Positions 9,675 to 63,462 are shown, counted from the first letter of the stretch. The stretch is DNA of 64,000 bases from an uncultured Gammaproteobacteria bacterium (GCA_964355175.1 CAYHBZ010000002.1:28426-92425); one strand, 5' to 3'. The notes: generated by a model from the sequence alone, not told the origin. Numbers and translations are program-made.

Positions 9675-9698
9675 TTTGTATACACTAGTCTATACAAA
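9675..9698. repeat. 24-bp near-palindrome TTTGTATACACTAGTCTATACAAA (copy 1)
   Basis: Exact reverse complement of the copy at 9799-9822. Same orientation as the copy at 47746-47769. Confidence 0.8.
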
Positions 9699-9798
9699 TA
9701 AAATTTATCTTAAGTTAGCTAAAATAATGACCGGTTGGTAATGAATTTATTGATAGTTGTACACAGTAGTGTGCACTTTCCCACATAGTTATCCACAA

Positions 9799-9822
9799 TT
9801 TGTATAGACTAGTGTATACAAA
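9799..9822. repeat. 24-bp near-palindrome TTTGTATAGACTAGTGTATACAAA (copy 2, inverted relative to copy 1)
   Basis: Seen directly: lies 124 bp from copy 1 and is its exact reverse complement. Confidence 0.8.
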
Positions 9823-9923
9823 CATAAAATTCACATAGAACAAATAAAAAAATCCCTCGACTTGGTCGAAGGATTTTAGTTTGTTTTGAATATTCCTTGT
9901 TTACGCTTAGAATGACAAGTCTT

Positions 9924-29226: not shown

Positions 29227-29240
29227 AAAATAATTAAGTT

Positions 29241-29277
29241 ACAAAAAAATTCCTTAAAATAAAGGAATTTTTTTGTA
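29241..29277. terminator. bidirectional intrinsic terminator between convergent genes
   Basis: A-run, then AATTCCTT-aaaata-AAGGAATT hairpin, then T-run. Confidence 0.5.
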
Positions 29278-30855: not shown

Positions 30856-32079
30856 CTAATGTCCTTGTGCGCCGTCTTCTGTACTGCCGTCAAATACTTT
30901 TGTATTTTTGTCTCCAGCCACCTCAAGGATTCCCCATGCGCCGCGATCTAGTCTCGAAAGGGCGTGGTCTACAAGAATATATTTACCCGGCACCTCCAGT
31001 TTGAAATCAACAATAGCCGCGCCACCCGCTGGCACCAGTGTGGTTTGGACATTCTTAAACAACGCGCCTCCGATGGAGGCTTCCGGATAAACAGTATCAA
31101 AAATTTCGCCGATAACGTGAAACGACGAGATAAAATTAACTCCGCCGTTGCCAATAAATATTCTTACGGATTCACCGACATTCGCTTTCATATTGCCGAC
31201 CAACCCTTTCGTTTTGCCATTGAAAACAACATATTTGGGACGTCCGTCAAGCATTTTTTGAGCGTCGAATATTTGCAAGCCCTTTTTGCCTAAACCTCCG
31301 GTGCTATAAAACTCTCCCTGCATGACGTAAAACTCTCGGTCAACTTTGGGTAACCCCTCTTTCGGTTCCACTAAAATCAAGCCGTACATACCGTGAGCGT
31401 CGTGGGTAGCGACATTGGGGTGAGCGCAGTGATAGACATAGAGGCCAGGATTCAGTGCTTTGAACGTCATGGTTTTTGATTCTCCCGGAGCGATATTCGT
31501 AAGTACTGCCCCGCCACCCGGGCCAGTGACTGCATGGAGGTCAATGTTGTGGCTATGAATGCTGGAAGGATCGTTTTTCAGCATCAACTCAACTGTATCT
31601 CCCTCACGAACGCGGATGAATGGCCCCGGCACCGTGCCGTTGAATGTCCAGTAGTTAAAAGTCACGCCGGGAGCCATTTCGGCGATAACTTCCTTGGTCT
31701 CCAGCTCTACTTTGATATTTTCAGAATGGTTGCGATTTATTGGTGGCGGGATATCATTAGGATCGCGAGCGATGGAAGCAACTCGTTCCATATTCCCAGA
31801 TTTTGCAAAAAAGGTAACAACGTTTTTAAATGGGAGACCAGGTCCGTCAGCGGGTCCGAATGTTTTTAAGAAGAACGGATATTGCAATCGTTCCGGAAAC
31901 GCATACGGCATGAAAAGAAAAAACGATATTCCAACAAGAATGACCGAAAAAACGGCGGCAATTTTCCACGAATGAAACTTGCGGATAATCCAGAAAATAA
32001 AGAGTCCGGCGGCAACAAAAGAAATTGCCAGACCAAAAACTTGAATGAGTACGAACTTGAAGAGTGAGAGACTTTCCAT
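30856..32079 (-). CDS. nirK: copper-containing nitrite reductase, membrane-anchored
   Basis: Two N-terminal TM helices. Type-2/type-1 Cu ligand block HNIDLHAVTGPGGG. Type-1 Cu site YHCAHPNVATHDAHGMYG (Cys...His...Met). Two cupredoxin domains. Confidence 0.8.
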   Translation of the reverse strand: MESLSLFKFVLIQVFGLAISFVAAGLFIFWIIRKFHSWKIAAVFSVILVGISFFLFMPYAFPERLQYPFFLKTFGPADGPGLPFKNVVTFFAKSGNMERVASIARDPNDIPPPINRNHSENIKVELETKEVIAEMAPGVTFNYWTFNGTVPGPFIRVREGDTVELMLKNDPSSIHSHNIDLHAVTGPGGGAVLTNIAPGESKTMTFKALNPGLYVYHCAHPNVATHDAHGMYGLILVEPKEGLPKVDREFYVMQGEFYSTGGLGKKGLQIFDAQKMLDGRPKYVVFNGKTKGLVGNMKANVGESVRIFIGNGGVNFISSFHVIGEIFDTVYPEASIGGALFKNVQTTLVPAGGAAIVDFKLEVPGKYILVDHALSRLDRGAWGILEVAGDKNTKVFDGSTEDGAQGH

Positions 32080-32168
32080 AAATTGATTAATGTTATTTTA
32101 ACAGATTTTCCATCGGAGCACCTAATACCGTGGCGATTTTTGCCACCGTACCCGATTTCATATCCCTA

Positions 32169-32420
32169 TTAATTTAAATCTTTCTTCTTCTCCTCAAATT
32201 CTTTTTTATCAATCTCGCCTTTTGCGTAGCGTTCTTTCAGGATTTCAAGCGGGGACTTGTCTTTTCCGTGCGCGGCATCAGCATGATCATGTCCACACCC
32301 GTGACCATTTCCAGAACCGCCTCTGACCAAGGCGACAATCGCCCAGATTACGAGACCCCAAAAGACGACCATAAATATCCAACCGAATCCGCCCATAGTT
32401 CCAAATCCAAAGTTCATCAT
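32169..32420 (-). CDS. SHOCT-domain small membrane protein
   Basis: N-terminal TM helix, His/Gly-rich linker, C-terminal LEILKERYAKGEIDKKEFEEKKKDL SHOCT motif. Confidence 0.55.
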   Translation of the reverse strand: MMNFGFGTMGGFGWIFMVVFWGLVIWAIVALVRGGSGNGHGCGHDHADAAHGKDKSPLEILKERYAKGEIDKKEFEEKKKDLN

Positions 32421-32446
32421 AAAATTGTTTGATTAGTTAATAATAT

Positions 32447-34036
32447 TTACTCCTCGACCGTAAATGTAAACATCATACCAGCTTCGATGTGTTCGAGAAT
32501 ATGACAATGAGCCATCCACACTCCCGGATTGGACATATCGATCAAAACATCCAAATATTCACCTGCTGGTACGTTGACGGTGTCCTTCCACACCAGATTA
32601 GTCTCTGGCGCGCCATTTTTATTCAGCACCAAGAAACGCTGGCCATGAAAATGTATGGGGTGTTGCATAGGGTGTGCGGAGTTGCCGTCGTTGGTAATCC
32701 GTATCTTCATCTTTTCCCCAACCTTAAACTTCCAATCAATGTCCATATTTGCATTACCGGAGTCCTGATCGATTATCTTCCACGTCACCATGTCTGTATT
32801 TGACATCGCGTTCATCCCAGCGTTGTCCGAATCATCCCATTCAATACCGCCTTTCGGCACAGTACCCATCATTTGGCCTCCGCCCATGCGAGACGGCATC
32901 CCATGAGTACCGTTACCCATCATACCGGTGTTGCCACCCAGCATATCAAGCGAGAGTTTTATGCGCTTGTCAGTCTCTTTGGCAAAAAAGGGACGAAAAG
33001 GATCAATGATCTTAATGGCCTCGACGTTATCGCGGAGAGTCTTAAATATATTCGCGTTCGAGGAGACAAGCGACTCATCTGAAACGATAATTTTTCCAAG
33101 ACGTGTTGTTGTATCGGGAGTCTTGTTTTGGATTTCGTATTCACCCGGTGCGTCAAAGCGAGTTTCAACTACGGCGCGCTCGGAAGGAGTGATGAGTACC
33201 GCATCTTTCCATTCCTCATGTTCATATGCGCCGTTATCTCCGCCGACAAGCTTCAACTTCGCTCCCTTGATGGCAAGATTAAACGGCCGGACACTCGCGC
33301 TGTTGGTGAAGTAGAAACGAATCACCTCGCCACTCTTAACCGAGAGAGTGTAGTCGGTCTCGCCATTTACGAGCATGACATTTCCAAATCGTCCCATAAG
33401 AGCGCGATCCGATCCGTCTTTGTAGAATGGCGCGATTTTCCCGTTCTCAATCAAAATGTCATCGAGGAAAACGGCAACTTCGCGGTCAACCGTGTTCCAA
33501 TAGGTCGGGCTTTCTGAAGTTACTAAGAAATTTCCATAAAGGCCGAGCTCAATGGCATAGTCATCGCGCATATGCGGGTGATACCAATACACACCGGTGT
33601 CAGGGAATGTGAGTGTGTAGGTAAACGAGTCGCCGGGCTGAACCACCTTTTGCGTCACATCAGGAACGCCGTCAAAGGCATTGGCCATGCGCACACCATG
33701 CGAATGAATAGTATTCTCCACGTCCGTATCGTTTTTAAAATTAACGGTCACCGTGGCTCCTTGTGGGATTTTCAAAGTCGGTCCCGGGATAGAGCCATTG
33801 TAGGCGAGCATTCGTACTTGGTTCCCATTGATATTCTTTTTTACAAAACTCGCTGTGAGGTCAAACGTGTCTCCATCTTTGAGTTCTATTACCTGTGTCT
33901 TCTCTGCAGATGGCAATCCCTTGATACTTGTTGAAAATGTCTGACCAGAAACAATGCCGTTATTTGATACAAAAATACCTCCGACAATTGCTACTGATAT
34001 CGCGAGTATACCAATGAGTAATGGTTTATTTTTCAT
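32447..34036 (-). CDS. three-domain multicopper oxidase (CueO/CopA-like, with Met-rich segment)
   Basis: Signal peptide. Cu-ligand motifs HSHG, WYHPH, HPIHFHG and HCHILEHIEAGMM. Met/Gly-rich insert GMMGNGTHGMPSRMGGGQMMG typical of Cu(I)-handling MCOs. Confidence 0.85.
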   Translation of the reverse strand: MKNKPLLIGILAISVAIVGGIFVSNNGIVSGQTFSTSIKGLPSAEKTQVIELKDGDTFDLTASFVKKNINGNQVRMLAYNGSIPGPTLKIPQGATVTVNFKNDTDVENTIHSHGVRMANAFDGVPDVTQKVVQPGDSFTYTLTFPDTGVYWYHPHMRDDYAIELGLYGNFLVTSESPTYWNTVDREVAVFLDDILIENGKIAPFYKDGSDRALMGRFGNVMLVNGETDYTLSVKSGEVIRFYFTNSASVRPFNLAIKGAKLKLVGGDNGAYEHEEWKDAVLITPSERAVVETRFDAPGEYEIQNKTPDTTTRLGKIIVSDESLVSSNANIFKTLRDNVEAIKIIDPFRPFFAKETDKRIKLSLDMLGGNTGMMGNGTHGMPSRMGGGQMMGTVPKGGIEWDDSDNAGMNAMSNTDMVTWKIIDQDSGNANMDIDWKFKVGEKMKIRITNDGNSAHPMQHPIHFHGQRFLVLNKNGAPETNLVWKDTVNVPAGEYLDVLIDMSNPGVWMAHCHILEHIEAGMMFTFTVEE

Positions 34037-34039
34037 AGG

Positions 34040-34423
34040 TTATTTTGCATTATTGATAATGGTTTGAATGATTTGGTCGATTTCTTTTGGTCTTTCGCCC
34101 AAATCGGCTTGCGGAAAAAACTGCGGCAGAATAATCGGGCGCATGCCGGAAATAACCGTCTGCCCATCTTTCGTATAGATGTTTATCTTGCATGGCAGGC
34201 AAAGACCGATCTTGATATCAATATTCAAAAACTCATTGGCAAACTTTGCGTTGCAAAACTCCACAATCTTAAACGGCTCTCGCTTGAAACCTTTCTCGGC
34301 CAATGTTGCTTCCACATCATGAGTATACAAAACCCGCATACCGGCTTTGGCAATTTCGTCTTGCACGCTCAAAACCGCCTCGTCAAAAACTTTTGTTGTG
34401 GTTGTAGTGTAATCGAATTCCAT
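34040..34423 (-). CDS. DUF302-domain protein
   Basis: Length and sequence pattern match the DUF302 family, which is frequently encoded in metal-resistance loci. Confidence 0.5.
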   Translation of the reverse strand: MEFDYTTTTTKVFDEAVLSVQDEIAKAGMRVLYTHDVEATLAEKGFKREPFKIVEFCNAKFANEFLNIDIKIGLCLPCKINIYTKDGQTVISGMRPIILPQFFPQADLGERPKEIDQIIQTIINNAK

Positions 34424-34428
34424 AAATG

Positions 34429-34701
34429 TTACTTATTTGATAAATTATAGATTCTGATTAATTCTTTGACAGCCTTCTCGTCCTCGCCTTTACTCTGCAT
34501 TTGATGTTTTACATGGGAACGGAGGTGGTTTTCCAAAAGAAAGCTGTCAAGACTTTTGAGCGACCTTTGAATAGAGAGTGATTGCTCCAGCAGGGTAGGG
34601 CAATACTCCTCTTTCTCAATAGCCTTGATAAGTCCGTCAAATTGACCTTTGAGGATCTTCGCTCTATGAAGAGCGCGGTTTTTTAATTTTTGGTCAACCA
34701 T
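34429..34701 (-). CDS. csoR: CsoR/RcnR-family metal-sensing transcriptional repressor
   Basis: 90 aa, all-helical. Conserved Cys (YCPT) and His/Cys positions (HLRSHVKH) of the CsoR W-X-Y-Z fingerprint. Heads the Cu operon. Confidence 0.65.
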   Translation of the reverse strand: MVDQKLKNRALHRAKILKGQFDGLIKAIEKEEYCPTLLEQSLSIQRSLKSLDSFLLENHLRSHVKHQMQSKGEDEKAVKELIRIYNLSNK

Positions 34702-35259
34702 AGTTTTTGGGTAATTAATAATAGATGTCCACCTACATATATAGTATATACCCCTATATCCTATAAATCAATTACTTTACCCTTGTTGCCATAAAGTTTT
34801 TGACAAAGATATATTTATGTATTATAATTATCAACGCTAAAGACTCAGATATTTCTATGCAAAAGTGGCTATTCAAATCTATTAAACTTCTCACATTAGT
34901 CATTTTTATTTTTGGCACTTTTTCGCTTTGTATTGCGCATACAACTACTGAACCTGTGGAACAGACTATCGCTATATCTGCGCTGGATACCAATGATAAT
35001 CACTGCTGTGGGGGTAAAAAATTGTCGGAAAAACGAACTCTTCTTAATAAAACAAGAATCAGTCAATTACATAATGAAAAGACAGAAAAGTTACCATTAG
35101 CTATATTACCACAACGCCTTATTCCTTCCGTACGGTTGAGTGAATGGCCTGGACCACAGAGAGAGCAATACCACTCTCTTAAAACACAACAACAATTATC
35201 AATGGTCATGCGCTCGTAAATTTTGTTTAAAACAATAATCTTTTGGTTATTGTTTTTTT

Positions 35260-36198
35260 TTGTTTTTAAAAATAATTTTTATTATGAAAAAATTTATATT
35301 TATTATCGCCGCTCTTATGCTCGTTGGGGCAGGATGCGCCTCGCAAAAAACGCCCGCTAACGAAGCCGTCCCTACAGCTGATCAAGGAAGCGCTGTAAAT
35401 AGTGGTGCTAACTCAGACAAAGAACATGCTAAGGCCGGACATTTATCTACAGTAGCAGGCAGTCGTATTGAATTAGACAATCAAAATAGTTTTAAACCAG
35501 GCGAAGTAACATTTAGTTTTAAGCTGTACGGATTAGACGGTCACGAATTTGGGCCAAACGATTTAAAAGTTGAACACGAAAAGAAAATGCATTTCTTAAT
35601 GGTGCGGGATGATATGACAGGTTTCCAGCACACTCATCCAGAATATGCTAACGGAAAGTGGTCGGTAAAAACTGCCTCAATAGAACAAGGTGAGTACCAG
35701 CTCTATGTTGATATTGCCCCTGAGGAAGAGAAGGCTATTGTGCTACGCGTTCCCGTAACTATCGGTGGACAAACGGTAACTAAAAATTTTCCAACCCCAA
35801 ATACTGATCTTTCAGCTCAAGATAGTGCTTACCGCGCTGTTCTAACAACAGATGGTATCTTAAAAACCAACGAACACAACACGCTTACTTTCTCCGTAAC
35901 CAGCAATGGCCAACCAATAAAAAATATTGATCCTTACTTGGGTGCCTATGGCCATGTGGTTTTACTTCGTCATAATGATCCAGACGATTTTTTTCACGTT
36001 CATCCTATTACCGAAAACAAACCAGTTGACGGTAAAGTTCAGTTTGAAGCTCAGTTCCCGGTTAAGGGCCGTTATACGCTGTATGCTCAGTTTAATATTG
36101 GCGGCTCAGTAAAGACATTTCCAATCACTCTTGATGTTAACGAACAAGGTCAGGACAGTGATACTTCTCATGGACATGACACCAAGGCAAAAGAATAA
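35260..36198 (+). CDS. lipoprotein with two tandem ~120-aa domains each carrying an HxHP motif (candidate periplasmic metal-binding protein)
   Basis: Lipobox LVGAGCAS. Internal repeat, domain 1 ...MHFLMVRDDMTGFQHTHPEYANGKW..., domain 2 ...GHVVLLRHNDPDDFFHVHPITENKP.... Confidence 0.45.
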   Translation: MFLKIIFIMKKFIFIIAALMLVGAGCASQKTPANEAVPTADQGSAVNSGANSDKEHAKAGHLSTVAGSRIELDNQNSFKPGEVTFSFKLYGLDGHEFGPNDLKVEHEKKMHFLMVRDDMTGFQHTHPEYANGKWSVKTASIEQGEYQLYVDIAPEEEKAIVLRVPVTIGGQTVTKNFPTPNTDLSAQDSAYRAVLTTDGILKTNEHNTLTFSVTSNGQPIKNIDPYLGAYGHVVLLRHNDPDDFFHVHPITENKPVDGKVQFEAQFPVKGRYTLYAQFNIGGSVKTFPITLDVNEQGQDSDTSHGHDTKAKE

Positions 36199-41096: not shown

Positions 41097-41256
41097 TTAA
41101 GTATGAATAGTCCCCGGTGGAATAACCCCGGGGACTTTTCTATGCAAATTGACAAATGCCTTAAAATAAGGCAATCTCGGTGCGAACTTGGTCTACGACA
41201 CACCGCATTAAAATTACCTTGAAAATTGAAGGTAATTTTGTTATATTACTGCTATT

Positions 41257-45185: not shown

Positions 45186-45899
45186 ATGGAAAAGAAATTT
45201 TTGATAATACCGGTAATGTTGTTGGTGTCACCTTTTTTGGCCGGCTGTGGCGCCAAAATAGAAACAAAAAATCCAGATAAACCGGAGCAGAGCCAGGTCT
45301 TGAATTATGCTACGAGTACTGGTAATATGCTAGAAGCCAACACTGGCCAGGCAGTAGCTAATAAAACTATTACTTCCACTAATAATTTAAATAAGAAAAA
45401 AACTATGGAAAATTTTGATGAGAAAAAGCAATATTTGGCCGAGGTCCACACTAGTAACGGTGACTTTACCATTACTTTTAATTTAGGTCAGACACCAAAG
45501 ACAGTAGAAAATTTTGTTACTTTGGCGCGTAAAGGATTTTATGACAAGACTGTTTTTCATCGTGTGATTAAGGGTTTTATGATCCAAGGCGGCGATCCAT
45601 TGGGTAATGGCACTGGTGGCCCGGGATACAAATTTGCCGATGAAAAATTTGATGGAGAATATACTCGCGGTACAGTAGCGATGGCAAATTCCGGTCCAAA
45701 CACCAACGGCAGTCAATTCTTTGTTATGCATGCCGATTATCCCCTGCCTCCAAACTATGTAATTTTTGGAAAAGTCACTAGCGGTATGGATGCGGTAGAT
45801 AAAATTGCTGAAAGTCAGGTAAAACCAGGAATGTTTGGAGAAGCCTCTACACCGGTGAATCCAACTGTGATAATGTCTGTTGAAATTAAGGAAGAATAA
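45186..45899 (+). CDS. ppiB: cyclophilin-type peptidyl-prolyl cis-trans isomerase, lipoprotein
   Basis: Lipobox LAGCGA. Cyclophilin core FHRVIKGFMIQGGDP...GTVAMANSGPNTNGSQFF. Confidence 0.85.
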   Translation: MEKKFLIIPVMLLVSPFLAGCGAKIETKNPDKPEQSQVLNYATSTGNMLEANTGQAVANKTITSTNNLNKKKTMENFDEKKQYLAEVHTSNGDFTITFNLGQTPKTVENFVTLARKGFYDKTVFHRVIKGFMIQGGDPLGNGTGGPGYKFADEKFDGEYTRGTVAMANSGPNTNGSQFFVMHADYPLPPNYVIFGKVTSGMDAVDKIAESQVKPGMFGEASTPVNPTVIMSVEIKEE

Positions 45900-46097
45900 A
45901 AATAATTAAAAACAAAAACACCCTATAATTTTTACCTGATAAAAGTTCGCATAATTGGCTATAAATTTTCGTTATGGCCCTAAGGGTAGGGCCATTGTCC
46001 CGACTCTGTCGGGACACCACTCAAATTTACTTACGCCAATTAGGGGCTCACTTTTATGTGGTAAAAATTATAGGGTGTTTTTGTTTTTAATTATTTT
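45899..46097. repeat. structured ~195-bp palindrome-flanked element, copy A (core identical to copy B at 62105-62298)
   Basis: Outer perfect inverted repeat ttaaaaacaaaaacaccctataattttt / aaaattatagggtgtttttgtttttaa. It encloses a ~140-nt core with internal hairpins (GGCCCT-aagggt-AGGGCC; GTCCCGAC-tct-GTCGGGAC). Lies between convergent ppiB and rmuC. Confidence 0.75.
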
Positions 46098-46108: not shown

Positions 46109-47182
46109 TTATTCTTCTAAAACAGGTTTCTCTATATAGAGAGGTTCAATTTTTTTCTCGGCACCTACTATTCTCACTACATCTTTATCAATCTTATTAA
46201 ATTCTTTGTAGACAGTGTTGTAGCTATTTACCGTGGTAGATAAATTAGCGCCAAGTTTTTTTAGGTATTCATCATAAGCCAGTAAATGTTTGTTGAGCTC
46301 CTCTACTCTCTGTCGAATTTCTTTGGCCGACTCCTCTATTTGCATAGCGCGCAAGCCTTGAAGCACTGTTTGTAGGTAGGCCAAGAAAGAAGTTGGTGAA
46401 ACAATTACCACGTGTTTTTCTTTAAAAGCGTATTCAATCAGATCTTGAGTGTTGGTTTTGAGCGTGCCGACTTGATTCACCAAGAGATCATAATAAATTC
46501 CTTCGGAAGGTATAAACATGAAGGCGAAGTCCATAGTGCCTTCTTTTGGTTTGATATATTTACTGGTTTCATTGATGCGATTTTTTAGATCCGCTTTAAA
46601 TAGCGCCTCTAGTTCCAATTTTCTTTGTGGATCTTTTTCGCTCACGGCACGGTTGTAATTTTCTAAACTAAACTTGGAGTCAATTGGTATGACTTTCTCT
46701 TTTACAAAAACTACAGCGTCCACGATATCTCCATTTTCAAATTTATATTGCATTTGGTAGCTGCCTGGAGGTAAAACATTTTTTAAAACATTTTCCAGAT
46801 AGTACTCCCCTAGTATGCCACGGTGTTTTGGATTCTGTAAGATATTTTCCAGATCCTGAAGTTGGTCGGCAAATCCCATGATTTGTTTGTTAGTTTCATC
46901 CAGCTTGGTAAGTTTTTCCGTCACTTCGGCAATTATCTTGGCGCTCTGACCAAATTGTCCTTGGATGGCCTGGTGCATGTTGGTCTGATGGACGTTCATT
47001 GCCTGATGATTGTCACCTATTTTCTTTTCCATCTGACGGCCAAGATCCTGAATTTGGCTCTGGAGCAAAACAAACAGGTTTTCATCCCCTTTTGGTTTCT
47101 GTAATTCTTTTAGCTTATTATATAGGAAGAGCAAGGCGGTAAATAAGGCCATTGCGACGATGATTAATATAATATTTGTCAT
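46109..47182 (-). CDS. rmuC: DNA recombination protein RmuC
   Basis: N-terminal TM, long coiled coil, C-terminal RmuC nuclease-like domain. Confidence 0.75.
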   Translation of the reverse strand: MTNIILIIVAMALFTALLFLYNKLKELQKPKGDENLFVLLQSQIQDLGRQMEKKIGDNHQAMNVHQTNMHQAIQGQFGQSAKIIAEVTEKLTKLDETNKQIMGFADQLQDLENILQNPKHRGILGEYYLENVLKNVLPPGSYQMQYKFENGDIVDAVVFVKEKVIPIDSKFSLENYNRAVSEKDPQRKLELEALFKADLKNRINETSKYIKPKEGTMDFAFMFIPSEGIYYDLLVNQVGTLKTNTQDLIEYAFKEKHVVIVSPTSFLAYLQTVLQGLRAMQIEESAKEIRQRVEELNKHLLAYDEYLKKLGANLSTTVNSYNTVYKEFNKIDKDVVRIVGAEKKIEPLYIEKPVLEE

Positions 47183-47745: not shown

Positions 47746-47769
47746 GATTTGTATACACTAGTCTATACA
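47746..47769. repeat. 24-bp near-palindrome TTTGTATACACTAGTCTATACAAA (copy 3)
   Basis: Identical to the 9675-9698 copy. Lies in the long AT-rich region upstream of the O-antigen-ligase-like gene. Confidence 0.8.
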
Positions 47770-48250
47770 AATTTATAATATGTAGTTGATTTATTGATTA
47801 TTTTCAGTGTTTTACGTGAAACATTCGATATCTCTGTAATTATTGTTTGGAAACAGCTAAAAGAGTTATTGGAAATGCTGGGACTGTTATAATTGCTTAA
47901 ATCCATATAATATTCCCTTAAAAAAGTTTTACGTGAAACAATTATTTTTAATGTGTGGAAGAATTATTAACCTATATTAAAGGTGCTAAAATAAAAGATA
48001 ACTATTTGATTATAAAAGCATAAGTAAAGAGTTTAAAAATCATGCCCAGGTTCTAACTAATAAGATCGCTGGATTGTTATTGTGCTCAGTTAGAATTTTA
48101 TAATCATTTTTTCCATTTATTTTAAACAAAATATTTTCTAAATAAAAAGGTATATAAATTTATGTAACTTTTTATTTATTAACATACCAAAATAAGGTCC
48201 AGTATGGTATAATATTAGTATTGAAAATATTTTTAAGAGTATTATTTTTT

Positions 48251-55175: not shown

Positions 55176-58100
55176 ATGGATGAGAAGGTAGCGAAAATAA
55201 AACAGGGGGAAAGAAACCGTAATTTTTGGTATACGGCTGTCTTTTTGTTTTTGTTCTCTTTGTTGGCTTTTATTGGAAAAAATTTGGCCTTGGCCGCTGA
55301 TGCGCCGGCAGTAGTTACTTATCAGGGAAAATTATTAGTAAATGGTTCTACCGCTACTACCACCCAATCAATAAAATTTGTTTTATATGATGCTTTAACT
55401 TCTGGAACGGCTCTATATACCGCTTCCGGTACTATAGGCACCCCAACAGCAGTAAGCACTACGGTAAGCAATGGCTTCTTTACGATTAATTTAGGGGATA
55501 CTGGCACCAACTCTTTGGATCCCGCGGTATTTAAAAATAACTCATCGGTTTATTTGGAAGTAATTATTGGCTCAGAAACCTTGTCTCCACGTAAACGTTT
55601 GACGGCTGCTCCTTATGCCTTTAATGCCAAATACTTAGATGGTATTAGCGCTACCGCAACACCACAAACATTTGCTTATATTCCCGTAGCCGATGCTAGT
55701 GGTAATTTAAATTTTAAAAATGTTACCTCTACTGCTCTAGTGGTGACGGGAGAATCAAATTTGGCCACTACTACTCTGTCTACTCTAAATTCTACCGATG
55801 TTAATGGCACAAATTTAAATTTTATTAATGGTAGAATTTTGTTTTTAACCTCCTCAGGAACTGCCACCTTAACCGATTTAACAGTGCTCGGCAGTGGCGT
55901 ATTAGCTACTACGACTATTGCAAGTTCAACTATCGGGCATTTAAATGTTACAAATACCACTACTATTGGCGGTATGCTGCGTATAACTGGCAATTCTTAT
56001 TTTGGCACAGTCGCTTCCGGCACTTGGAATGGTACAGCTGTATCTAGCGTGTATGGAGGTACAGGCCAGAATTCATCTGGTTGGACTGGGTTTATAAAAT
56101 TAACGGCTGGGGTTTGGTCAACCAGTACAATTAGCACAAATGATTTGTCCAATTCTTCAACTTTGGCTTTTTTGGCCGGCAATCAAACTTTTACCGGTAA
56201 TAATACTTTTTCTGCTACCAGTACTTTTGCAACTGCCACTTTTAGTGGATATCTAGGTATAGGTACCACTACTCCGGAAGAAAGATTGCATATTTATAAT
56301 GGTAATTTGAGAATAGATGGTCCGGTTAATCCTACGGCGGTTGGGTCTTATAATACTAGCGGCAACGCATTGAACATAAAAGTTTCTGGAAAATACGCTT
56401 ATGTAGCGGATGGCGCTAGTGGACTAGAAATTTTTGATATGTCTTTTCCTCTTTCTCCCGCCTTAGTTAGTACTTATGATACTTTTGGTATCGCTTATGA
56501 TGTAGAGATAGTTGGTCGGTATGCTTATGTGGCAGATGATACTAGTGGTCTATTGATAATAGATATAGAAAATCCAGGTATTCCAAGGTTGGTGGGCAGT
56601 TATGACACTTCGGGGAATTCGGTCTCAGTGTATGTTTCGGGTAAATACGCTTATGTGGCAGATCAAACTGGTGGTATCAGAATAATTGATGTGTCCAATC
56701 CTTATAATCCAATTTTAGTTTCTACTATTAGCGCTACCTCAGCTGACGATATATATATCCGTGGTAAATACGCTTATGTGGCAGATTATGGCGGAGGATT
56801 TAAAGTAGTTGATATTAGTGATCCGGTAAACCCTTTTATAGTTACTTCCACTGGTTCGGGGTTAGCCAATAGTGTCCATGTAATTGGGCGTTATGCTTAT
56901 GTATCTTTCAATACTTCTACCAATAATATTATTGCTTATAATATTTCTAATCCTACTTCCACTGTTCAAACCGATACTTTTTCTACCACAAATGCGGCCC
57001 AAGGTGTTTTCTTCTCAGGTAATTATTTGTATGCGATTGACACCACCACTTTTTATATTTTTAATCCCGGCTCTTTTTCTATAGTGGGAAGCTATGCTCT
57101 AAATGAAACCAAGTCATTAACCATAGTAGGAAAATATGCTTATATTTCCAATGGTAGTTCAGGTATTAGTATTTTAGATATAAAGGGCGCCGATATAACA
57201 GCGGCTAATATTGGAAGTGTGTCGACCAATAATTTGACAGTTTGGGAAAATGTTGAAATAGGAAATAATATATCGGTACGCAGTGGTTTAAATGTTGGTT
57301 TAGGTGGAATTTTATCCAACGGTCCTTTATCCATAAATTTTTCTTCCTACACCACAACTTCTTTATTTAGTATTTCCGCTTCCTCTTCTCCGGTAGTAGA
57401 TATTTTGGGGGACGGAAAAGTAGGAATTGGTACCAGCACTCCACAGCAAAAGTTGCATTTGTATGATGGCACTTTATTGGTAGATACACCAGCTAATCCT
57501 ACTTTGGTTGGATCTTTGATCTTTGATAGTACGCCGGCGGCCAGATCAGTTTATGTGGCTGGGAAATATGCCTATGTACTTACAAATAATGGTTTGGTAA
57601 GTATAAATGTAGATAATAAGGCTAATCCGACTGCAATAAGTTATTTAAGTATTAGTGGAACAACTGGGGCATTTGATAGATCGTTGGTAGTGGCTGGGAA
57701 ATATGCCTATGTTGTTGCCAATAGTGCAAATACTTTAAATGTAGTAGATATTTCCAATCCAAAATTGATGTCGATTGTTGGTACAGTCACTAGTGATAGC
57801 GTCTTAACGAACCCGGCGTCGATGTATGTATCCGGACAATATGCTTATATTGCTAGCAATGGAACAAGTACAGTGGCAGTCGTGGATATAGCCAATCCTG
57901 CTAGCCCAAGAGTTGTTGGAAGTGTGAGAGATACTAACAAGCTATCTTCAGTCAAAGGAATTTATGTAAGAGGAAAATATGCTTATGCCGTTAGTAGTGA
58001 CAATAATTATTTGGTAGTTATTGATGTTTCTACTCCGACAGCGCCTACAATTGTAGGGTCAATTGCTGATTCAACAAATATGAATGGAGCTTATTCAGTA

Positions 58101-60857
58101 TATGTTTCCGGGAATTATGCTTATGTGGCGAGCTTTTTTTCTAAGTCATTGGCAGTAGTGGATATTTCAGATCCGACTACACCGGTGGTATCAGCTGGTT
58201 TGATAGATGCTGTAAATTTAGATGATTCTAAAAGCGTATATGTTTCTGGAAAATATGCTTATGTAGCTTCAAATAATGGTGACAGGATCTCTATTGTGGA
58301 TATTTCTACTACTAGTACTTTAAGGGTGGTGGGGAGTTACAGTAGTAGTATGACAAACGGTCCTTTGTCAGTTTTTATTTCTGGAAAATATGCTTATGTA
58401 GCTTCCGTAAATTCGACTAATCTGGCCATCTTAGATATTAAGGGAGCTGATATAAGCTCCGCCAGTATAGGAAATATCAATTCCAACGACCTGACTGTTT
58501 GGGAGAATGTTGATGTTGGAAATAATTTATTTGTGAATAGCGCCATAAATGTCGGCGGAGGTTTGAACAGTAATGGTCCTATATCAATTAATACAAATTT
58601 AACTGGAGGAGCACTTTTTCAAATTTCTTCCAGTACCAACTCCTCAATCTTTACTATTTTGTCCAATGGTAACGTCAGCATCAATACCACTTCTTTTGGT
58701 GGCACTTCTTATAAATTAAGAATAGATGCTGGCGATATAGCTAATGGAGCTATTGGTACCAATGGGTTTATAAGAGCCACTTCCTATATAACTGCTAGCA
58801 CTACCTTAGACTTGGCTGAAACATATCCTATTAATGGTTCCTGTTCTGATAATGGCAGTTGTCCAACCGACGGTGATGTAGTTTGTAGTGATTCAACGGT
58901 GCTAGAAGGTGTAAAAAAGTGTACTTTAAATGATTTGCATCATATTATTGGTATAATTTCTACTAATCCTGGTTTCTTATTGGGTGGAGGAGATTTTTCC
59001 AACCCAACTCAAAATCTAGGTAGAGTCAAAGTGGCGTTAGCCGGTCGTGTTCCAGTAAAAGTTTCTTCTTTAAATGGCCCGATTGTTGCCGGTGATAAAT
59101 TAACTTTGTCCGATGTTGATGGTGTAGCGACCAAAGCTGTTGGCGAGGGTCCGGTAGTGGGCATAGCGATGGAGTCTTATTCAGGAAATACGCAAGGAAG
59201 TATTATCGTTTTTGTAAATTTAGGTTGGCAAAATCAACTTTATAAAGTTTTATCTTTAAAAACCGATATTGCAACTTTAGAATTAGGCAGTAGTGAGGTG
59301 CCTTATAATTTGTCTTTAAGTGGTGACTTGGTAATGTCTAATAATCTTTTAAATAAACTTTCATTTGGAGGGTCAGCTTTATTTGAAACTCAAACTTCGG
59401 CGGCTAATGCCTTTATATTTAATGCTTCAAATTATTCTACTTCTAGTAACCAATATTTATTATCATTGCGTTCCAATAATGATCCGCGTTTTTCAGTAAT
59501 GTCGAACGGAGACACTCATACTGTTGGAAATATTTATGCTGCCGGCGCTATTTTTGGCACATCCACTAATCCTGGTGATTTGGCTGAAAGAGTAGATCTC
59601 GCTTCTGATGACGCGGTAGAGCCTGGTGATGTTCTGGTGGTGGATATACAGAATCCTGACACCTATCGTCGCAGTAGTAACGCTAACGAACAAGCAGTGG
59701 CCGGAGTAGTGTCTACCAATCCTAGTATTATAGTGGGAAATGGCAAGACTTCGTATACTACCGTAATGGCCATGGTTGGCCGAGTTCCTTTAAAAGTTTC
59801 CAATGAAAATGGAGAAATCAAAAGAGGTGATTTATTGGTGAGTGCTTCTACGGTCGGTTATGCTATGAAATATAATTCACAAGTAGATACAAATGAGAAA
59901 GTGGTTGGAATTATCGGTGTGGCATTAGAACCATTTTCCGGAGAAAGCGGCAAAATCATGGCATTAATTCGTACCGGTTGGATCAGTAATAATACATCAG
60001 CCTTGTCGGTGGTAAAAAGTGATTTGCAAAAATTGGCAGACGCACAAGGAATGGCTTTGGGATCAAAACAAAATTTAAGTATTCAAAATGTTGGAGGCGC
60101 TCTAGCTTATAGTAGTGGAGATTTAAATTTACAAGGAAATAAATTATTAAATGTAGCCGCTATTTTTGGTAGAAATAATCGTTGGTCAATTGATGAACAG
60201 GGAAGGTTTATTACCCGTGTTTCCACCTCACAAGGAGAAAAGGATATGTACGCGATGCAGTCAGCAAATTCCGAATTTGTTTTTTCTAGTTCTTCACAAT
60301 TGATTGCTGGGGAGGTAAAAATTATATTTGACCAGTATGTTCAAGAGATAATAGATCAACAGCAACCAATAAAAATTAATATTACTTTGACTTCTGGTGA
60401 AGCCAAAGGTATTTATGTTAGCGAAAAAAATCCTCAAGGGTTTATTGTAAAAGAATTAGGCGATGGCAATAGCAGTGCAAGTTTTGATTGGATAGTGGTA
60501 GCTCGAAGCAAGGAGATAGAACAATCGCCAAGCGCTGACTTGATAAATAATTTAATTAACATTAATTCGGATAATTCTATTCCCGGAATTGATCCTGCTA
60601 CGGCAAGTGCCGATAATTCTGTTTTATCTCCGGTAGAAATATTAGATTCACTCTCACAAACAGGTTCTTCAAGTCCAATTTTAACTTCAGAATCCAATAA
60701 TGTTGAGCCAACTACTACTAATCCTGCGCCCTCTGTGGAAATTAGCTCTCCAGTTATAGCTCCGCCGGCTGAAGTTGTTTCTCCTGTTTCCGTCCCCGCT
60801 GCCGAACCTGATCCAGCCACGGTAGTCGAACAAGTTCCAACTCCGGCTACCCCCTAA
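55176..60857 (+). CDS. giant (1893 aa) LVIVD-repeat beta-propeller surface protein with tandem C-terminal modules and Pro-rich tail
   Basis: N-terminal TM. At least 14 repeats of the form GKYAYVAD...G..I.DIS.P (LVIVD repeat). Duplicated ~170-aa module (...GVVSTNP.I..G...VAL.GRVPVKVS..NG.I..GD.L...). C-terminal PAPSVEISSPVIAPPAEVV tail. Confidence 0.65.
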   Translation: MDEKVAKIKQGERNRNFWYTAVFLFLFSLLAFIGKNLALAADAPAVVTYQGKLLVNGSTATTTQSIKFVLYDALTSGTALYTASGTIGTPTAVSTTVSNGFFTINLGDTGTNSLDPAVFKNNSSVYLEVIIGSETLSPRKRLTAAPYAFNAKYLDGISATATPQTFAYIPVADASGNLNFKNVTSTALVVTGESNLATTTLSTLNSTDVNGTNLNFINGRILFLTSSGTATLTDLTVLGSGVLATTTIASSTIGHLNVTNTTTIGGMLRITGNSYFGTVASGTWNGTAVSSVYGGTGQNSSGWTGFIKLTAGVWSTSTISTNDLSNSSTLAFLAGNQTFTGNNTFSATSTFATATFSGYLGIGTTTPEERLHIYNGNLRIDGPVNPTAVGSYNTSGNALNIKVSGKYAYVADGASGLEIFDMSFPLSPALVSTYDTFGIAYDVEIVGRYAYVADDTSGLLIIDIENPGIPRLVGSYDTSGNSVSVYVSGKYAYVADQTGGIRIIDVSNPYNPILVSTISATSADDIYIRGKYAYVADYGGGFKVVDISDPVNPFIVTSTGSGLANSVHVIGRYAYVSFNTSTNNIIAYNISNPTSTVQTDTFSTTNAAQGVFFSGNYLYAIDTTTFYIFNPGSFSIVGSYALNETKSLTIVGKYAYISNGSSGISILDIKGADITAANIGSVSTNNLTVWENVEIGNNISVRSGLNVGLGGILSNGPLSINFSSYTTTSLFSISASSSPVVDILGDGKVGIGTSTPQQKLHLYDGTLLVDTPANPTLVGSLIFDSTPAARSVYVAGKYAYVLTNNGLVSINVDNKANPTAISYLSISGTTGAFDRSLVVAGKYAYVVANSANTLNVVDISNPKLMSIVGTVTSDSVLTNPASMYVSGQYAYIASNGTSTVAVVDIANPASPRVVGSVRDTNKLSSVKGIYVRGKYAYAVSSDNNYLVVIDVSTPTAPTIVGSIADSTNMNGAYSVYVSGNYAYVASFFSKSLAVVDISDPTTPVVSAGLIDAVNLDDSKSVYVSGKYAYVASNNGDRISIVDISTTSTLRVVGSYSSSMTNGPLSVFISGKYAYVASVNSTNLAILDIKGADISSASIGNINSNDLTVWENVDVGNNLFVNSAINVGGGLNSNGPISINTNLTGGALFQISSSTNSSIFTILSNGNVSINTTSFGGTSYKLRIDAGDIANGAIGTNGFIRATSYITASTTLDLAETYPINGSCSDNGSCPTDGDVVCSDSTVLEGVKKCTLNDLHHIIGIISTNPGFLLGGGDFSNPTQNLGRVKVALAGRVPVKVSSLNGPIVAGDKLTLSDVDGVATKAVGEGPVVGIAMESYSGNTQGSIIVFVNLGWQNQLYKVLSLKTDIATLELGSSEVPYNLSLSGDLVMSNNLLNKLSFGGSALFETQTSAANAFIFNASNYSTSSNQYLLSLRSNNDPRFSVMSNGDTHTVGNIYAAGAIFGTSTNPGDLAERVDLASDDAVEPGDVLVVDIQNPDTYRRSSNANEQAVAGVVSTNPSIIVGNGKTSYTTVMAMVGRVPLKVSNENGEIKRGDLLVSASTVGYAMKYNSQVDTNEKVVGIIGVALEPFSGESGKIMALIRTGWISNNTSALSVVKSDLQKLADAQGMALGSKQNLSIQNVGGALAYSSGDLNLQGNKLLNVAAIFGRNNRWSIDEQGRFITRVSTSQGEKDMYAMQSANSEFVFSSSSQLIAGEVKIIFDQYVQEIIDQQQPIKINITLTSGEAKGIYVSEKNPQGFIVKELGDGNSSASFDWIVVARSKEIEQSPSADLINNLININSDNSIPGIDPATASADNSVLSPVEILDSLSQTGSSSPILTSESNNVEPTTTNPAPSVEISSPVIAPPAEVVSPVSVPAAEPDPATVVEQVPTPATP

Positions 60858-61020: not shown

Positions 61021-62094
61021 ATGTCATTTTCAATTGGAATTGTCGGACTGCCAAATGTTGGTAAGTCTACACTATTTAACGCTTTGACTCGCAGTAAGCA
61101 AGCCCAAGCGCAAAACTATCCTTTTTGTACCATCGACCCAAATGTCGGTGTGGTAGAAGTGCCTGATAATCGTTTGGCTCAGTTGAGTAAATCTTCCGAA
61201 TCAAAAAAAATTATACCAACAGTGATTGAATTTGTGGATATTGCTGGCCTGGTGAAGGGCGCTTCCGAAGGTCAGGGTCTAGGTAATAAATTTTTGTCTC
61301 ATATCCGTGAAGTAGACGCTATTGCTCAGGTGGTGCGTGCTTTTAGCGACAGCAATGTGATTCATGTAAATAATAAAGTGGATCCAAAAGATGATGCCGA
61401 TGTTATTAATTTGGAATTGGCTTTGGCTGATTTGCAGACCGTAAGTAAAAGATTGGATAATGCTAAAAAAGCCGCCAAAGGAGTCGCCGCTAAAGATTTT
61501 GCCAAACAAATTGAATTATTGGAAAAAGTTAATGCTCAATTGCAACAAGGAAAACCGGCGCGTGAATTGGAATATGATGAAGAAGAAATGGAAATAATGC
61601 GTGAATTGCAATTGCTCACCATGAAGCCAATGTTGTATGTGGTAAATATAGATGAAAGTCAAAATAATGAAAATAAATTTGTTCCCCCAGCAGGTACCGA
61701 GATGATTGAAATTAGTGCCAAGCTTGAAGCCGAATTGGCCGAGCTCAGCGTAGAAGAAGCGGCTGAATATTTACAATCACTGGGAATGTCTCAGACTGGT
61801 TTGGATAAATTAGTAACCGCTAGTTATAAATTATTGGAATTAGTAACTTATTTTACTTCCGGTGAAGTGGAAACACGCGCCTGGACCGTAAAGAAAAATA
61901 CCAAGGCCCCTAATGCCGCCGGTGTAATTCACACGGATTTTGTAAAAGGTTTTATCAAAGCCGATGTCTGCGATTGGAAAGATTTTGTAGAATTTGGCGG
62001 ATGGAGCGGAATAAAAACTAGTGGCAAATTGCGCTTGGAAGGAAAAGATTATATTGTGAAAGACGGTGATACGGTATATTTTCACATAGCGTAA
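61021..62094 (+). CDS. ychF: ribosome-binding ATPase YchF (Obg-family GTPase fold with TGS domain)
   Basis: GIVGLPNVGKSTLFNALT P-loop. DIAGLVKGAS. C-terminal TGS domain. Confidence 0.9.
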   Translation: MSFSIGIVGLPNVGKSTLFNALTRSKQAQAQNYPFCTIDPNVGVVEVPDNRLAQLSKSSESKKIIPTVIEFVDIAGLVKGASEGQGLGNKFLSHIREVDAIAQVVRAFSDSNVIHVNNKVDPKDDADVINLELALADLQTVSKRLDNAKKAAKGVAAKDFAKQIELLEKVNAQLQQGKPARELEYDEEEMEIMRELQLLTMKPMLYVVNIDESQNNENKFVPPAGTEMIEISAKLEAELAELSVEEAAEYLQSLGMSQTGLDKLVTASYKLLELVTYFTSGEVETRAWTVKKNTKAPNAAGVIHTDFVKGFIKADVCDWKDFVEFGGWSGIKTSGKLRLEGKDYIVKDGDTVYFHIA

Positions 62095-62104
62095 TTAGGA
62101 GTAC

Positions 62105-62298
62105 TTAAATTTAAAAACAAAACACCTCCTATTTTTTACCTGATAAAAGTTCGCATAATTGGCTATAAATTTTCGTTATGGCCCTAAGGGTAGGGCCATT
62201 GTCCCGACTAAGTCGGGACACCACTCAAATTTACTTACGCCAATTAGGGGCTCACTTTTATGCGGTAAAAAATAGGAGGTGTTTTGTTTTTAAATTTA
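62105..62298. repeat. structured ~195-bp palindrome-flanked element, copy B
   Basis: Outer perfect inverted repeat aaatttaaaaacaaaacacctcctatttttt / aaaaaataggaggtgttttgtttttaaattt. Core differs from copy A at 3 positions (2 in a hairpin loop, 1 in an internal 2x2 mismatch). Lies between convergent ychF and a methyltransferase gene. Confidence 0.75.
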
Positions 62299-63462
62299 AA
62301 CTTTCTTAAATCTCCAAATTTCACGGCCTAAATGTTGGGTTTCGCGCCAGTATAGCAGGTGTTTTTCTTCTTCTATTATACAATCATTTTCAAATCCAAG
62401 GTCTTCGATTTCTTCCTCACAGTCGATAGTTACCCAGCCATCGCGAGTTTTAAATCTAGGGATGATAAATACTACTACGCCATCATCCTTTAGTACTTTA
62501 TGAAATTGGGTGAAAGATTCTAAGTATAATCTTTTCAACTCAAGAGCCTGTTGTTCTAATACTAAAGCACTCTCGCTACCGCGCAATGGTTTTCCTAAGT
62601 AAGGCTCGGTAATAATTGCGTCCACTGAGTCGGATTTTATTTTTTGAGAAATTCTTGTAACATCTCCCACAAAAATTTTAATATCGTCAGTATTATTTTT
62701 TATTTGAAAATTGGTTTTTAGCCATTGCAGATTGAGGATAGTGTCGTTGATAGCCTTATCGGAAATATCCACGGCGATAATTTTTTTATAGCCCATTAAG
62801 ACCGCTTCACTAATTACAGTGCCTGAACCGCAAGAGGGATCAAAAATAGTTTTATCGGTTTTGGTAGTGGCAAGATTAATCATCATCATGGCCAATTTGG
62901 GCGGCAACATACCACTTTCATCGTCGCGTCCTGGTCGGCCGAAATCACGTTTGGAAAAGTCGTCTATTGCTTGAATGGCCGCGGTCATGAAAAGTTCATC
63001 CTGGTAGATTTCAATATCGGCTCCGGATTTAATCAGATTATTATAAATTACAGTGGCGGAATTTTTGGCTTCCACATAGCGGGCGGAGCGGCCCATATGT
63101 TTGAGCATTTTTTTTGTTTCAATACCAAGCGACACGGAACCGTTTATAGAAAATTCAATTTTTCCTTCAGTAATATGCTCGTTTAAAAATTTAGCCAGCT
63201 GAGAGGGGTTTTTTATTTTTCCGATAGAATAGGCAATTTTGATAGTGCCTCCTAATTTTTTTATTAGGTCGTTGGCGTTTGGAAAATGAGCGGCACTAAT
63301 AATTAGCTTATTTTCTTGATTATGAACAATCTCATAATCAATCTTATTTAATAAAAATAAAGCCTTGATTTCGACAAAAGACAGGACAGTTTCGCGTCCC
63401 AAAATAAATAGCCATTTATTTTTTACCGGAGATTGAGCTGGTAGGGGTGTTTTCGTTGCCAT
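62296..63462 (-). CDS. THUMP-domain class I SAM-dependent RNA (tRNA/rRNA guanine-N2-like) methyltransferase
   Basis: N-terminal THUMP-like region. DPSCGSGTV motif I typical of Trm14/RlmL-type enzymes. NPPY-like catalytic region. Confidence 0.65.
   Translation of the reverse strand: MATKTPLPAQSPVKNKWLFILGRETVLSFVEIKALFLLNKIDYEIVHNQENKLIISAAHFPNANDLIKKLGGTIKIAYSIGKIKNPSQLAKFLNEHITEGKIEFSINGSVSLGIETKKMLKHMGRSARYVEAKNSATVIYNNLIKSGADIEIYQDELFMTAAIQAIDDFSKRDFGRPGRDDESGMLPPKLAMMMINLATTKTDKTIFDPSCGSGTVISEAVLMGYKKIIAVDISDKAINDTILNLQWLKTNFQIKNNTDDIKIFVGDVTRISQKIKSDSVDAIITEPYLGKPLRGSESALVLEQQALELKRLYLESFTQFHKVLKDDGVVVFIIPRFKTRDGWVTIDCEEEIEDLGFENDCIIEEEKHLLYWRETQHLGREIWRFKKV

Follow-up and report, generated by a model that had tools for sequence, protein, structure and literature searches.

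What fills the gap between two converging genes when the whole of that gap is a palindrome? In the 64,000-nt stretch of DNA analysed here (the window), ychF, for the redox-regulated ATPase/GTPase YchF (61021-62094, plus strand; Pfam MMR_HSR1 and YchF-GTPase_C on an identical product, homologues being named YchF in Ca. Magasanikbacteria), runs towards a minus-strand open reading frame for a putative methyltransferase of the UPF0020 family (62296-63462; PF01170), and the DNA between them had been put forward as the second copy of a structured element. Such a second copy exists: a 195-nt near-palindrome at 62105-62299, here copy B, to which copy A, elsewhere in the window, is 91% identical over 189 nt. 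The original prediction set its start correctly, 10 nt past the ychF stop, as the open reading frame with its stop codon ends at 62094 and the linker ttaggagtac (homologous to ttaatagcac in locus L022 and tcagtagcac in L019) occupies 62095-62104; the end, put at 62298, needs moving by one base, since the arm extends to 62299. On the other side the 3' arm was said to abut the methyltransferase stop codon. Contact there is, but it goes beyond abutting, for the codon (62296-62298) sits within the arm, which overlaps it by 4 nt. That the element takes up the entire convergent spacer, as copy A does, was borne out, with ychF and the methyltransferase gene flanking copy B and genes for a cyclophilin and RmuC flanking copy A.

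Is so regular a structure real? A repeat search returns arms of 46 nt each (62105-62150 and 62254-62299), 96% complementary with 103 nt between them; over the outer 36 nt of each arm (62105-62140 and 62264-62299) pairing is perfect, and these outer arms enclose a 123-nt interior, the predicted fold being a rod with a Y-shaped tip made of two G+C-rich hairpins. Both strands fold about equally well, the plus strand as RNA at -98 kcal/mol (z -14.1) and the minus strand at -103.4 kcal/mol (z -16.0), shuffled sequences giving about -39 for either, and with DNA parameters the fold reaches -68 kcal/mol (z -14). A 26-nt arm probe matches the two arms of copy B only, and nothing in 100 shuffles; with the fold z-scores this places the pairing far above chance. 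Nor is copy B an artefact of assembly, since its arms recur in independent assemblies of three further samples, where the k=31 unitigs end 26-40 nt inside the arms as expected for a long inverted repeat. Copy B is real, and it is one member of a small family of hairpin-forming repeats of about 190 bases, here called F1.

From the outside inward the 5' arm of the outer stem P1 (62105-62140) consists of the A-rich TTAAATTTAAAAACAAAA, a G+C clamp CACCTCC and the inner arm TATTTTTTACC, so that the minus strand shows the clamp and then a T-tract; L019 and L022 have the same outer 18 nt at the orthologous junction. The 3' arm (62264-62299) answers with GGTAAAAAATA, the clamp GGAGGTG, the T-tract TTTTGTTTTT and then AAATTTAA. 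Within lies the conserved core, which a covariance model (R1) locates at 62136-62268 on the plus strand with 144 bits (E 1e-33), and whose first half is laid out as TTACC-TG-P2-TC-GC-A-P3-TA-P4-TC-GT-T-hairpin 1-hairpin 2 and second half as CC-AC-TC-P4'-...-P3'-GGG-GC-TC-P2'-GC-GGTAA. The 5' helix strands (62143-62176, plus strand, from the minimum-free-energy and consensus structures, and invariant in all copies) are P2 at 62143-62150, GC at 62153-62154, P3 at 62156-62163, P4 at 62166-62172 and GT at 62175-62176, with P2 pairing ATAAAAGT to ACTTTTAT, P3 pairing TAATTGGC to GCCAATTA and P4 pairing TAAATTT to AAATTTA. Conserved mismatch loops, TG/GC, TC/TC, A/GGG and TC/TC, separate the helices: P1 gives way through the 2x2 TG/GC mismatch to P2, then come the first TC/TC, two G-C pairs, the A/GGG loop, P3, a small loop, P4, the second TC/TC, two further pairs and the three-way junction from which hairpins 1 and 2 spring. 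The Y-tip is thus accompanied by a twice-repeated 'TC-2 bp...2 bp-TC' mismatch motif, and on the opposite strand both TC/TC mismatches are tandem G·A. As an aside, the topology of the three-way junction, unlike that of the P2/P3 loop, would permit a k-turn or k-junction role for these minus-sense tandem G·A. Hairpin 1 (62178-62199, plus strand) is ATGGCCCTA-AGGG-TAGGGCCAT, with an invariant loop region TAAGGGTA and, in L005 and L025, two compensated stem pairs (ACGGCTC...GAGCCGT); hairpin 2 (62200-62220, plus strand), TGTCCCGAC-TAA-GTCGGGACA, is the hypervariable part of the core. The 3' strands of the junction, P4', P3' and P2' complete it (62221-62263, plus strand), with unpaired CC, TC, GGG, TC and GC conserved. 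A 43-aa open reading frame at 62178-62309 was rejected as a small-peptide gene, being broken by hairpin-2 length changes that are not multiples of 3.

The base of the rod has the look of a terminator in both directions. In copy B the CACCTCC/GGAGGTG clamp stands between AAAAACAAAA and TTTTGTTTTT, giving a G+C stem followed by a T-tract on each strand, and this A-tract/clamp/T-tract base recurs in all seven full copies of the family while the clamp itself varies (CACCTCC, CACCC, ACCTC, GACTTTGG, ACGC and others). In position F1 is just what a bidirectional terminator would be, directly past the stop codons of the converging genes, and at F1 junctions there is no hairpin besides F1. It departs from an ordinary intrinsic terminator in its loop, which is not short, the stem enclosing instead the structured interior of 123 nt; a consensus terminator scan of 61900-62500 gives no site, a blank that is explained by its requirement for a 3-8-nt loop. 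Judging from layout and placement, F1 most likely serves as a two-way transcription stop for converging gene pairs. Not every such pair uses it, as of the approximately seven non-overlapping convergent junctions in the window two carry the element and most of the others have plain A-tract/stem/T-tract hairpins.

Copy A (45899-46097, plus strand) has its core in the same orientation as copy B and spans the convergent gap between a cyclophilin-type PPIase gene (45186-45899, plus strand) and rmuC (46109-47182, minus strand). The 123-nt interiors of the two copies differ only in the hairpin-2 loop and by one T/C, and their outer stems differ by compensated changes, each being self-complementary. 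Six further copies are found in related Ca. Magasanikbacteria, bringing the family to eight, seven full and one partial. Three of the full ones, L014 (6653-6836), L015 (546-709) and L018 (2020-2208), came from a scan with an 18-mer of hairpin 1 and lie on contigs of Ca. Magasanikbacteria Ike-150m-44; their flanking genes have no homologues in the window, so they represent different loci. The others come from loci fetched through neighbouring proteins: L005 (20609-20797) holds a full copy between efp and a small converging open reading frame, L025 (11075-11270) a full copy between rmuC and the PPIase gene, and L022 (3173-3318) a partial copy directly after ychF. The link with convergent junctions that had been read from the window extends to these other genomes, 5 of the 6 further copies lying between converging open reading frames and filling the spacer; for the sixth, L022, only the upstream gene ychF is visible, the contig ending inside the core. 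Counted over the family, every full copy (7/7) fills the gap between converging open reading frames, with stop codons that abut or overlap its arms. Copies span 164-199 bp, all of them bounded by TTACC...GGTAA, and at eight junctions in several genomes, six or more of these non-orthologous, the interior is identical.

How widely is F1 spread? Among 185,579 species representatives the hairpin-1 18-mer, which misses the ACGGCTC variant of that hairpin, finds the three Ike-150m-44 contigs and three unrelated chance matches. Model R1, run over about 250 kb (the window and the fetched loci), matches the eight family members and nothing else. JGI metagenomes yield no match either to a 21-mer spanning hairpins 1 and 2, of which hairpin 2 is variable, or to an invariant 22-mer; two scans of viral contigs, and blastn against phages and plasmids, are likewise blank for F1. 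At Rfam gathering thresholds only tRNAs pass in the window, and in E-value mode the strong matches at F1 are solely to plant miRNA-precursor models, which reward any long hairpin, and lie far below thresholds. As far as these searches go F1 is restricted to a few related Ca. Magasanikbacteria (Patescibacteria/CPR), and the searchable literature holds no earlier account of small dispersed repeats in that group. The YchF homologues that define the neighbourhood, at 83-95% identity, are annotated as Candidatus Magasanikbacteria; the ychF genes of these relatives are 80-87% identical in nucleotides to that of the window and to one another (74-77% for L020, the most distant) and 45-68% identical at third codon positions, and judged from sequence the relatives are distinct species-level lineages.

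Against that background the constancy of the core is striking. Its approximately 125 nt are 97-100% identical between genomes whose ychF third-codon identity is 55-68%, and so F1 appears far more conserved in its core than neighbouring synonymous sites are. A run of 43 nt, TTACCTGATAAAAGTTCGCATAATTGGCTATAAATTTTCGTTA, is identical in the seven full copies, and the 3' half is mostly invariant too. All 49 core pairs are Watson-Crick in every sequence holding both positions (the seven full copies and the truncated L022), 377 of 377 scored cells in the core alignment being paired; 34 of the 49 (the inner part of P1, P2, P3 and P4) are invariant, and the double-sided changes, two pairs in hairpin 1 and two in hairpin 2, have no one-sided counterpart. 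When full-length copies are aligned (69 pairs in six copies), 22 pairs are compensated, with one-sided changes and G·U pairs both at zero. Variation within the core is confined to hairpins 1 and 2 and is always compensated; the length, loop and stem of hairpin 2 differ in nearly every copy, taking the forms GTCCCGAC-TAA or -TCT, GTCCC-TTAC, GCCCC-TTC, GGCC-TTAC, GCCC-TGAC, GCCTC-GTGA and GCCCC-TCAC, with pairing kept throughout. The pattern, on the copies aligned, is one of an invariant interior with ends and tip that are free yet strictly paired. Such constancy argues for either purifying selection on each copy, through a host or RNA function, or very fast turnover, and decayed core copies with point mutations, which would be expected of a classical selfish repeat, were absent from the approximately 250 kb searched with R1. 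It may also be that the compensated changes without intermediates stem from hairpin-templated mutation and not from selection.

The same junction, followed through relatives, is anything but static. Between ychF and the methyltransferase gene the window has F1 in plus orientation. L022 (YchF 95% identical) has F1 with its asymmetric core inverted and the outer flank TTAAATTTAAAAACAAAA the same; L019 (94%) has the same flank and only a plain hairpin, ATACCTGG-TAATTTTTA-CCAGGTAT; L008 (94%) and L020 (83%) have a shorter Y-tipped element; L010 (90%) keeps the L008-type stem with the tip absent, a plain hairpin; and in L005 (93%) there is no spacer, the genes overlapping by 4 nt. The shorter element runs from a stem through TC(G/A)C, a hairpin 1 with a GCGA loop, GGA and a hairpin 2 to TAACCCGYTC; between L008 and L020 the hairpin stems differ almost throughout with pairing kept, and the GCGA loop and the TAACCCGYTC strand are conserved. 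It shares with F1 the Y-tip architecture and the 'TC-2 bp ... 2 bp-TC' motif, and R1 fails to detect it, so that it is at most a possible homologue of F1. At the efp junction F1 is present in L005, and plain hairpins are found in L008, in L010 and in the window's own genome (CACCTAGG-AATTTTTA-CCTAGGTG, L001 20843-20897, outside the window). At the rmuC/PPIase junction the window and L025 have F1, L026 (which shares an assembly accession with L022 and may derive from a different organism) has a plain hairpin, and L024, a strain of the same species with RmuC 99% identical to the window's, keeps the 3' arm gaaTAAAAAAAATTGTAGGGTGTTTTTGTTTTAATTATTTT alone, having lost the 5' arm and core in a deletion whose end-points lie in the A-rich repeat TAAAAAT. 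Across orthologous junctions the presence or absence of F1 thus appears independent of phylogeny.

What becomes of F1 when it goes? In L019 and L001 the hairpin loop reads AATTTTTA and then CC, just as the inner 5' arm of F1 does; as this 10-mer turns up only about five times per 128 kb of window sequence (both strands counted), coincidence is unlikely to have placed it in both. One short-repeat deletion from F1 yields each F1-less allele, between copies of TTACC (L019), CCT (L001) or TAAAAAT (L024), and the alleles of these three loci are read as deletion relics; relic-type loops of TTTTTACC or GGTAAAAA would be expected on that reading. L024, holding half a palindrome, is no pre-insertion target. 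Loss would then proceed by slippage-type deletion, often leaving a shorter hairpin still able to terminate. Gains, as the comparison implies, must occur too, since the same core stands at non-homologous junctions and sister lineages carry different elements at one junction, as do L008 and L022, sisters in the ychF tree, after ychF. Among the junctions compared none caught an insertion with clean boundaries or a target-site duplication; L005, the sole fully empty site, equally fits deletion between TAA repeats. The inverted core of L022 could have arisen when the arms recombined, or by a separate insertion. A scheme of apex insertion, with the core entering the loop of a pre-existing terminator at AATTTTTA|CC, was suggested by the F1-less alleles of L019 and L001, both of which have this loop and a shared outer flank. 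Still conceivable, it was dropped as the main reading because L024 has a 3' arm only, because each of the three F1-less alleles is one deletion away from F1, and because a near-identical outer stem accompanies the core at non-orthologous loci (copy A and L014).

Taken together, copy B is probably a member of a lineage-restricted family of dispersed palindromic repeats of about 165-200 bp that form bidirectional intrinsic terminators in a small Ca. Magasanikbacteria clade. Whichever of the two genes RNA polymerase comes from, it would transcribe the self-folding core first; the long helix would then be closed by the 3' arm as far as the clamp and U-tract, transcription should halt, and the mRNA 3' end would be capped by a very stable hairpin, F1 in this way serving both flanking genes as terminator and 3'-end cap. 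Because both strands must fold, only Watson-Crick pairs would be tolerated, a G·U pair being avoided since it would be an A·C mismatch in the transcript from the other side. Comparison shows the family copied between non-homologous convergent junctions, present in either orientation at one junction, and lost through deletions between short direct repeats that leave plain terminator hairpins or half-arms. As to the frozen core of about 125 nt, a more tentative and in itself rather doubtful suggestion is that it is a working nucleic-acid module, either as an RNA three-way junction that binds a protein or as the cis site of hairpin-directed copying. Our preferred guess is that it is a cis-acting site recognised by whatever mobilises or maintains F1; a candidate gene for mobilising it was not seen in the approximately 250 kb read.

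Could the core instead be a functional structured RNA, be it a 3'-UTR domain, a 3'-derived small RNA or a protein-binding three-way junction, selected at every locus? The outer stem would then be its terminator, and turnover the recruitment of a useful module rather than selfish spread. The degree of conservation of the core is roughly that of a structural RNA, next to synonymous sites that are almost saturated, core variation is limited to the two tip hairpins and compensated, mismatch loops are kept as mismatches, point-mutated decayed copies were not found, and an element of the same architecture stands at the ychF junction of L008 and L020. Yet two close relatives have the asymmetric core in opposite orientations at the same junction, so that no flanking gene's transcript always carries the same core strand, and the stable hairpin-2 tetraloops (GTGA, GTAA) are found on either strand in different copies. 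G·U pairs, usual in RNA helices and present in the conserved RNA candidate at 6646-6768, are lacking here; P2-P4 never covary, which points to constraint on sequence rather than shape; a promoter-like site and an Rfam family match were both looked for and not found; and the clade is very narrow, with the element dispensable at each locus. Such a function is accordingly conceivable and on balance unlikely. Better-known RNAs were rejected too: by eye the junction strands do not match a hammerhead core, and none of the Rfam models, those for self-cleaving ribozymes, 6S RNA, Y RNA and SRP RNA included, scores.

Alternatively, F1 might be a single-stranded DNA element, REPIN-like or of IS200/IS605 type, with folded hairpins recognised by a tyrosine (HUH) transposase or a structure-specific recombinase that is single-copy and encoded elsewhere in the genome, and with the frozen core as its binding and cleavage site. 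The fold stands out from chance as strongly for DNA as for RNA, pairing is strictly Watson-Crick, the core is constrained in sequence beyond shape, all copies share the TTACC...GGTAA boundaries, inversion and frequent deletion are what DNA palindromes typically undergo, and REP/REPIN families are likewise biased to convergent junctions (PMC3184786, PMC3337134). Against it, the gene tables of every locus read (about 250 kb) contain no transposase or RAYT-like gene; REPINs conserve their two ends and leave the middle free, the reverse of F1; GTAG/CGTC heads are absent; and though six of the eight copies are on the G-rich strand, strand bias relative to GC skew is not significant. This explanation seems somewhat less probable even than a selected RNA, and it overlaps with the terminator-repeat reading as a possible mechanism of its mobility. 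Improbable, too, is a classical cut-and-paste MITE, with the 36-48-bp arms acting as terminal inverted repeats for binding of an IS transposase, and insertion producing a target-site duplication. F1 is indeed a small (<300 bp), AT-rich, non-coding, multi-copy inverted repeat that is polymorphic between relatives, and relative to the spacer-less L005 allele TAA stands on both sides of the block, in AT-rich flanks; its termini, though, are the least conserved part and differ between copies around an invariant interior, the opposite of what a transposase-recognised repeat would show, any sign of a target-site duplication is ambiguous, a search of about 200-250 kb found no IS whose ends match (TTACCTGATAAAAGT or A-rich arms), and the outer 18 nt of the arm are common to the F1-less L019 allele. 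That an ordinary terminator simply grew in place by local duplication, with no repeat family behind it, would suit the terminator-like base and a site where a terminator is expected; it is refuted by the recurrence of one 123-nt interior at eight junctions, six or more of which are non-orthologous, and hardly merits belief. Partial, weak resemblances to an IS608-like insertion 3' of TTAC and to a Xer/dif-like or integron attC-like site were also set aside, with no enzyme gene nearby. The motif CGCATAA resembles the XerC arm of E. coli dif.

Where does a repeat family that forms bidirectional terminators stand among known systems? On our best reading SPRITE, bcr1 and ERIC would be the closest kinds and SPRITE the closest functional analogue; no sequence relation of F1 to these or to REP/REPIN was found, SPRITE being compared by its description. 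SPRITE of Streptococcus pneumoniae, small, AT-rich and dispersed, begins and ends in AAAA...TTTT, and its long duplex and U-rich tract have terminator-like properties; co-option as a terminator has been proposed for it. Its enrichment between convergent genes, near the 3' ends of coding sequences, is strong, and neither a matching IS nor a demonstrable target-site duplication is known (PMC3049150). F1 shares the A-run and T-run termini, the long duplex with U-rich tail and the placement at convergent 3' ends; SPRITE measures about 105 nt with an 18-bp duplex whereas F1 measures about 190 nt and is symmetric (bidirectional), and SPRITE is not known to have a counterpart to the Y-shaped conserved interior (PMC3049150). 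SPRITE is a Firmicute family, and F1 one of Ca. Magasanikbacteria with variable termini and an invariant core. The bcr1 repeats of the Bacillus cereus group, dispersed, mobile and about 155 nt long, resemble F1 in their stem-plus-two-hairpins topology (PMC3184786). They belong to an unrelated phylum and are unrelated in sequence. They have a defined target-site duplication, and to our knowledge bcr1 is not described as terminator-forming or as confined to convergent junctions.

ERIC (IRU, RU-1) of Enterobacteria is, like F1, an imperfect palindrome (127 bp) of transcribed intergenic DNA, with an interior unusually conserved across species and a patchy presence at orthologous sites (PMC2759123, PMC3184786), but it is not terminator-shaped, has no three-way junction and occupies many junction types over a far wider distribution. 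REP and REPIN sequences are likewise hairpin-forming extragenic palindromes with a convergent-junction bias and preserved pairing, for which roles in termination and mRNA stabilisation have been proposed (PMC3337134, PMC3733652); the two conserved terminal REP units, variable middle, GTAG/CGTC heads and RAYT gene of REPINs are not seen in F1. Ordinary bidirectional intrinsic terminators, too, place an A-tract, a G+C-containing stem and a T-tract between converging genes, and compensatory evolution of terminator stems is documented (PMC5381666). F1 differs from them in a stem of at least 36 bp and in carrying, instead of the loop, an insert of about 125-160 nt that is conserved and folds on itself.

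The genomes of Patescibacteria are tiny and closely packed. In these few lineages F1 shows the gaps between converging genes, the small amount of spacer that is kept, to be a zone of turnover, where a self-folding repeat can replace a terminator, flip, and decay to a plain terminator. There is a practical side, in that perfect arms of 36-48 bp break k-mer assemblies at these junctions, which matters for the completeness of metagenome-assembled genomes. A frozen interior with free ends is the reverse of the usual pattern, and the core is the part to test for a binding partner. F1 offers a testable route by which terminators might be born from selfish or semi-domesticated palindromes. Should the core turn out to be a working module, such mobile palindromes would renew the bidirectional terminators of streamlined CPR genomes, and plain terminators bearing remnants of F1 arms would be the fossils of mobile palindromes.

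At the convergent junction of ychF with a methyltransferase gene, more distant relatives carry a second, shorter Y-tipped terminator element (locus L008, 6393-6510; locus L020, 11083-11200, the latter the same as in L021). Between L008 and L020 the junction strands, TC(G/A)C ... GGA ... TAACCCGYTC, are conserved, as is the GCGA loop, while in the hairpin stems nearly all positions have changed with pairing kept; in a further locus, L010, the stem is present without the tip.

Logan short-read unitigs (L002-L004, L009, L023, L028 and L029) end 26-65 nt past stop codons, inside the arms of F1, a family of ~190-base palindromic repeats that probably form terminators at convergent junctions, and many of the YchF-bearing contigs of relatives are only ~1.2 kb in length; evidently the long perfect inverted repeats have broken k=31 assemblies at these junctions. 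The plus-strand ORF just upstream of ychF in the window (55176-60857; 1893 aa) has LVIVD repeats (PF08309). Its internal repeats are periodic at 123-138 nt, and its length varies widely among relatives, from 1465 to 1893 aa.

A candidate conserved non-coding RNA of the window is a hairpin-shaped, G+C-rich region of ~125 nt on the plus strand (6646-6768), adjoining a plain terminator at 6557-6586 and having a counterpart of 82% identity in the Ike-150m-44 genome (L014, 4428-4553). The consensus fold of the two has 42 pairs, with six compensated and two one-sided G·U changes, and an Rfam search of the region gave no match at E<=0.05. Another feature, at 9672-9825, consists of inverted arms of 25-28 nt, TTTGTATACACTAGTCTATACAAAT, spaced 98 nt apart, of which a repeat search found an identical third copy 38 kb off at 47747-47772. 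The motif, a small palindrome in its own right, could represent an operator or a further repeat.

When the window (1-64000) is divided into 16 bins of 4 kb, 15 have a positive GC skew on the plus strand and one, 32001-36000, a slightly negative skew, so the window probably lies within a single replichore. The plus orientation of F1 is on the G-rich strand in six of its eight copies, which is not significant.

At other junctions of the window, plain bidirectional terminator hairpins resemble F1 outer arms at non-orthologous loci. That at 29240-29277, TACAAAAAAATTCC, is similar to the F1 arm of L015, that at 41210-41239, AAAATTACC...GGTAATTTT, matches the TTACC/GGTAA ends of F1, and that at 2944-2985, AAAAAAGACTGGT, which contains G·T wobble pairs, is similar both to the F1 arm of L018 and to the hairpin beside efp in L008. 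The three hairpins may be older relics of F1.
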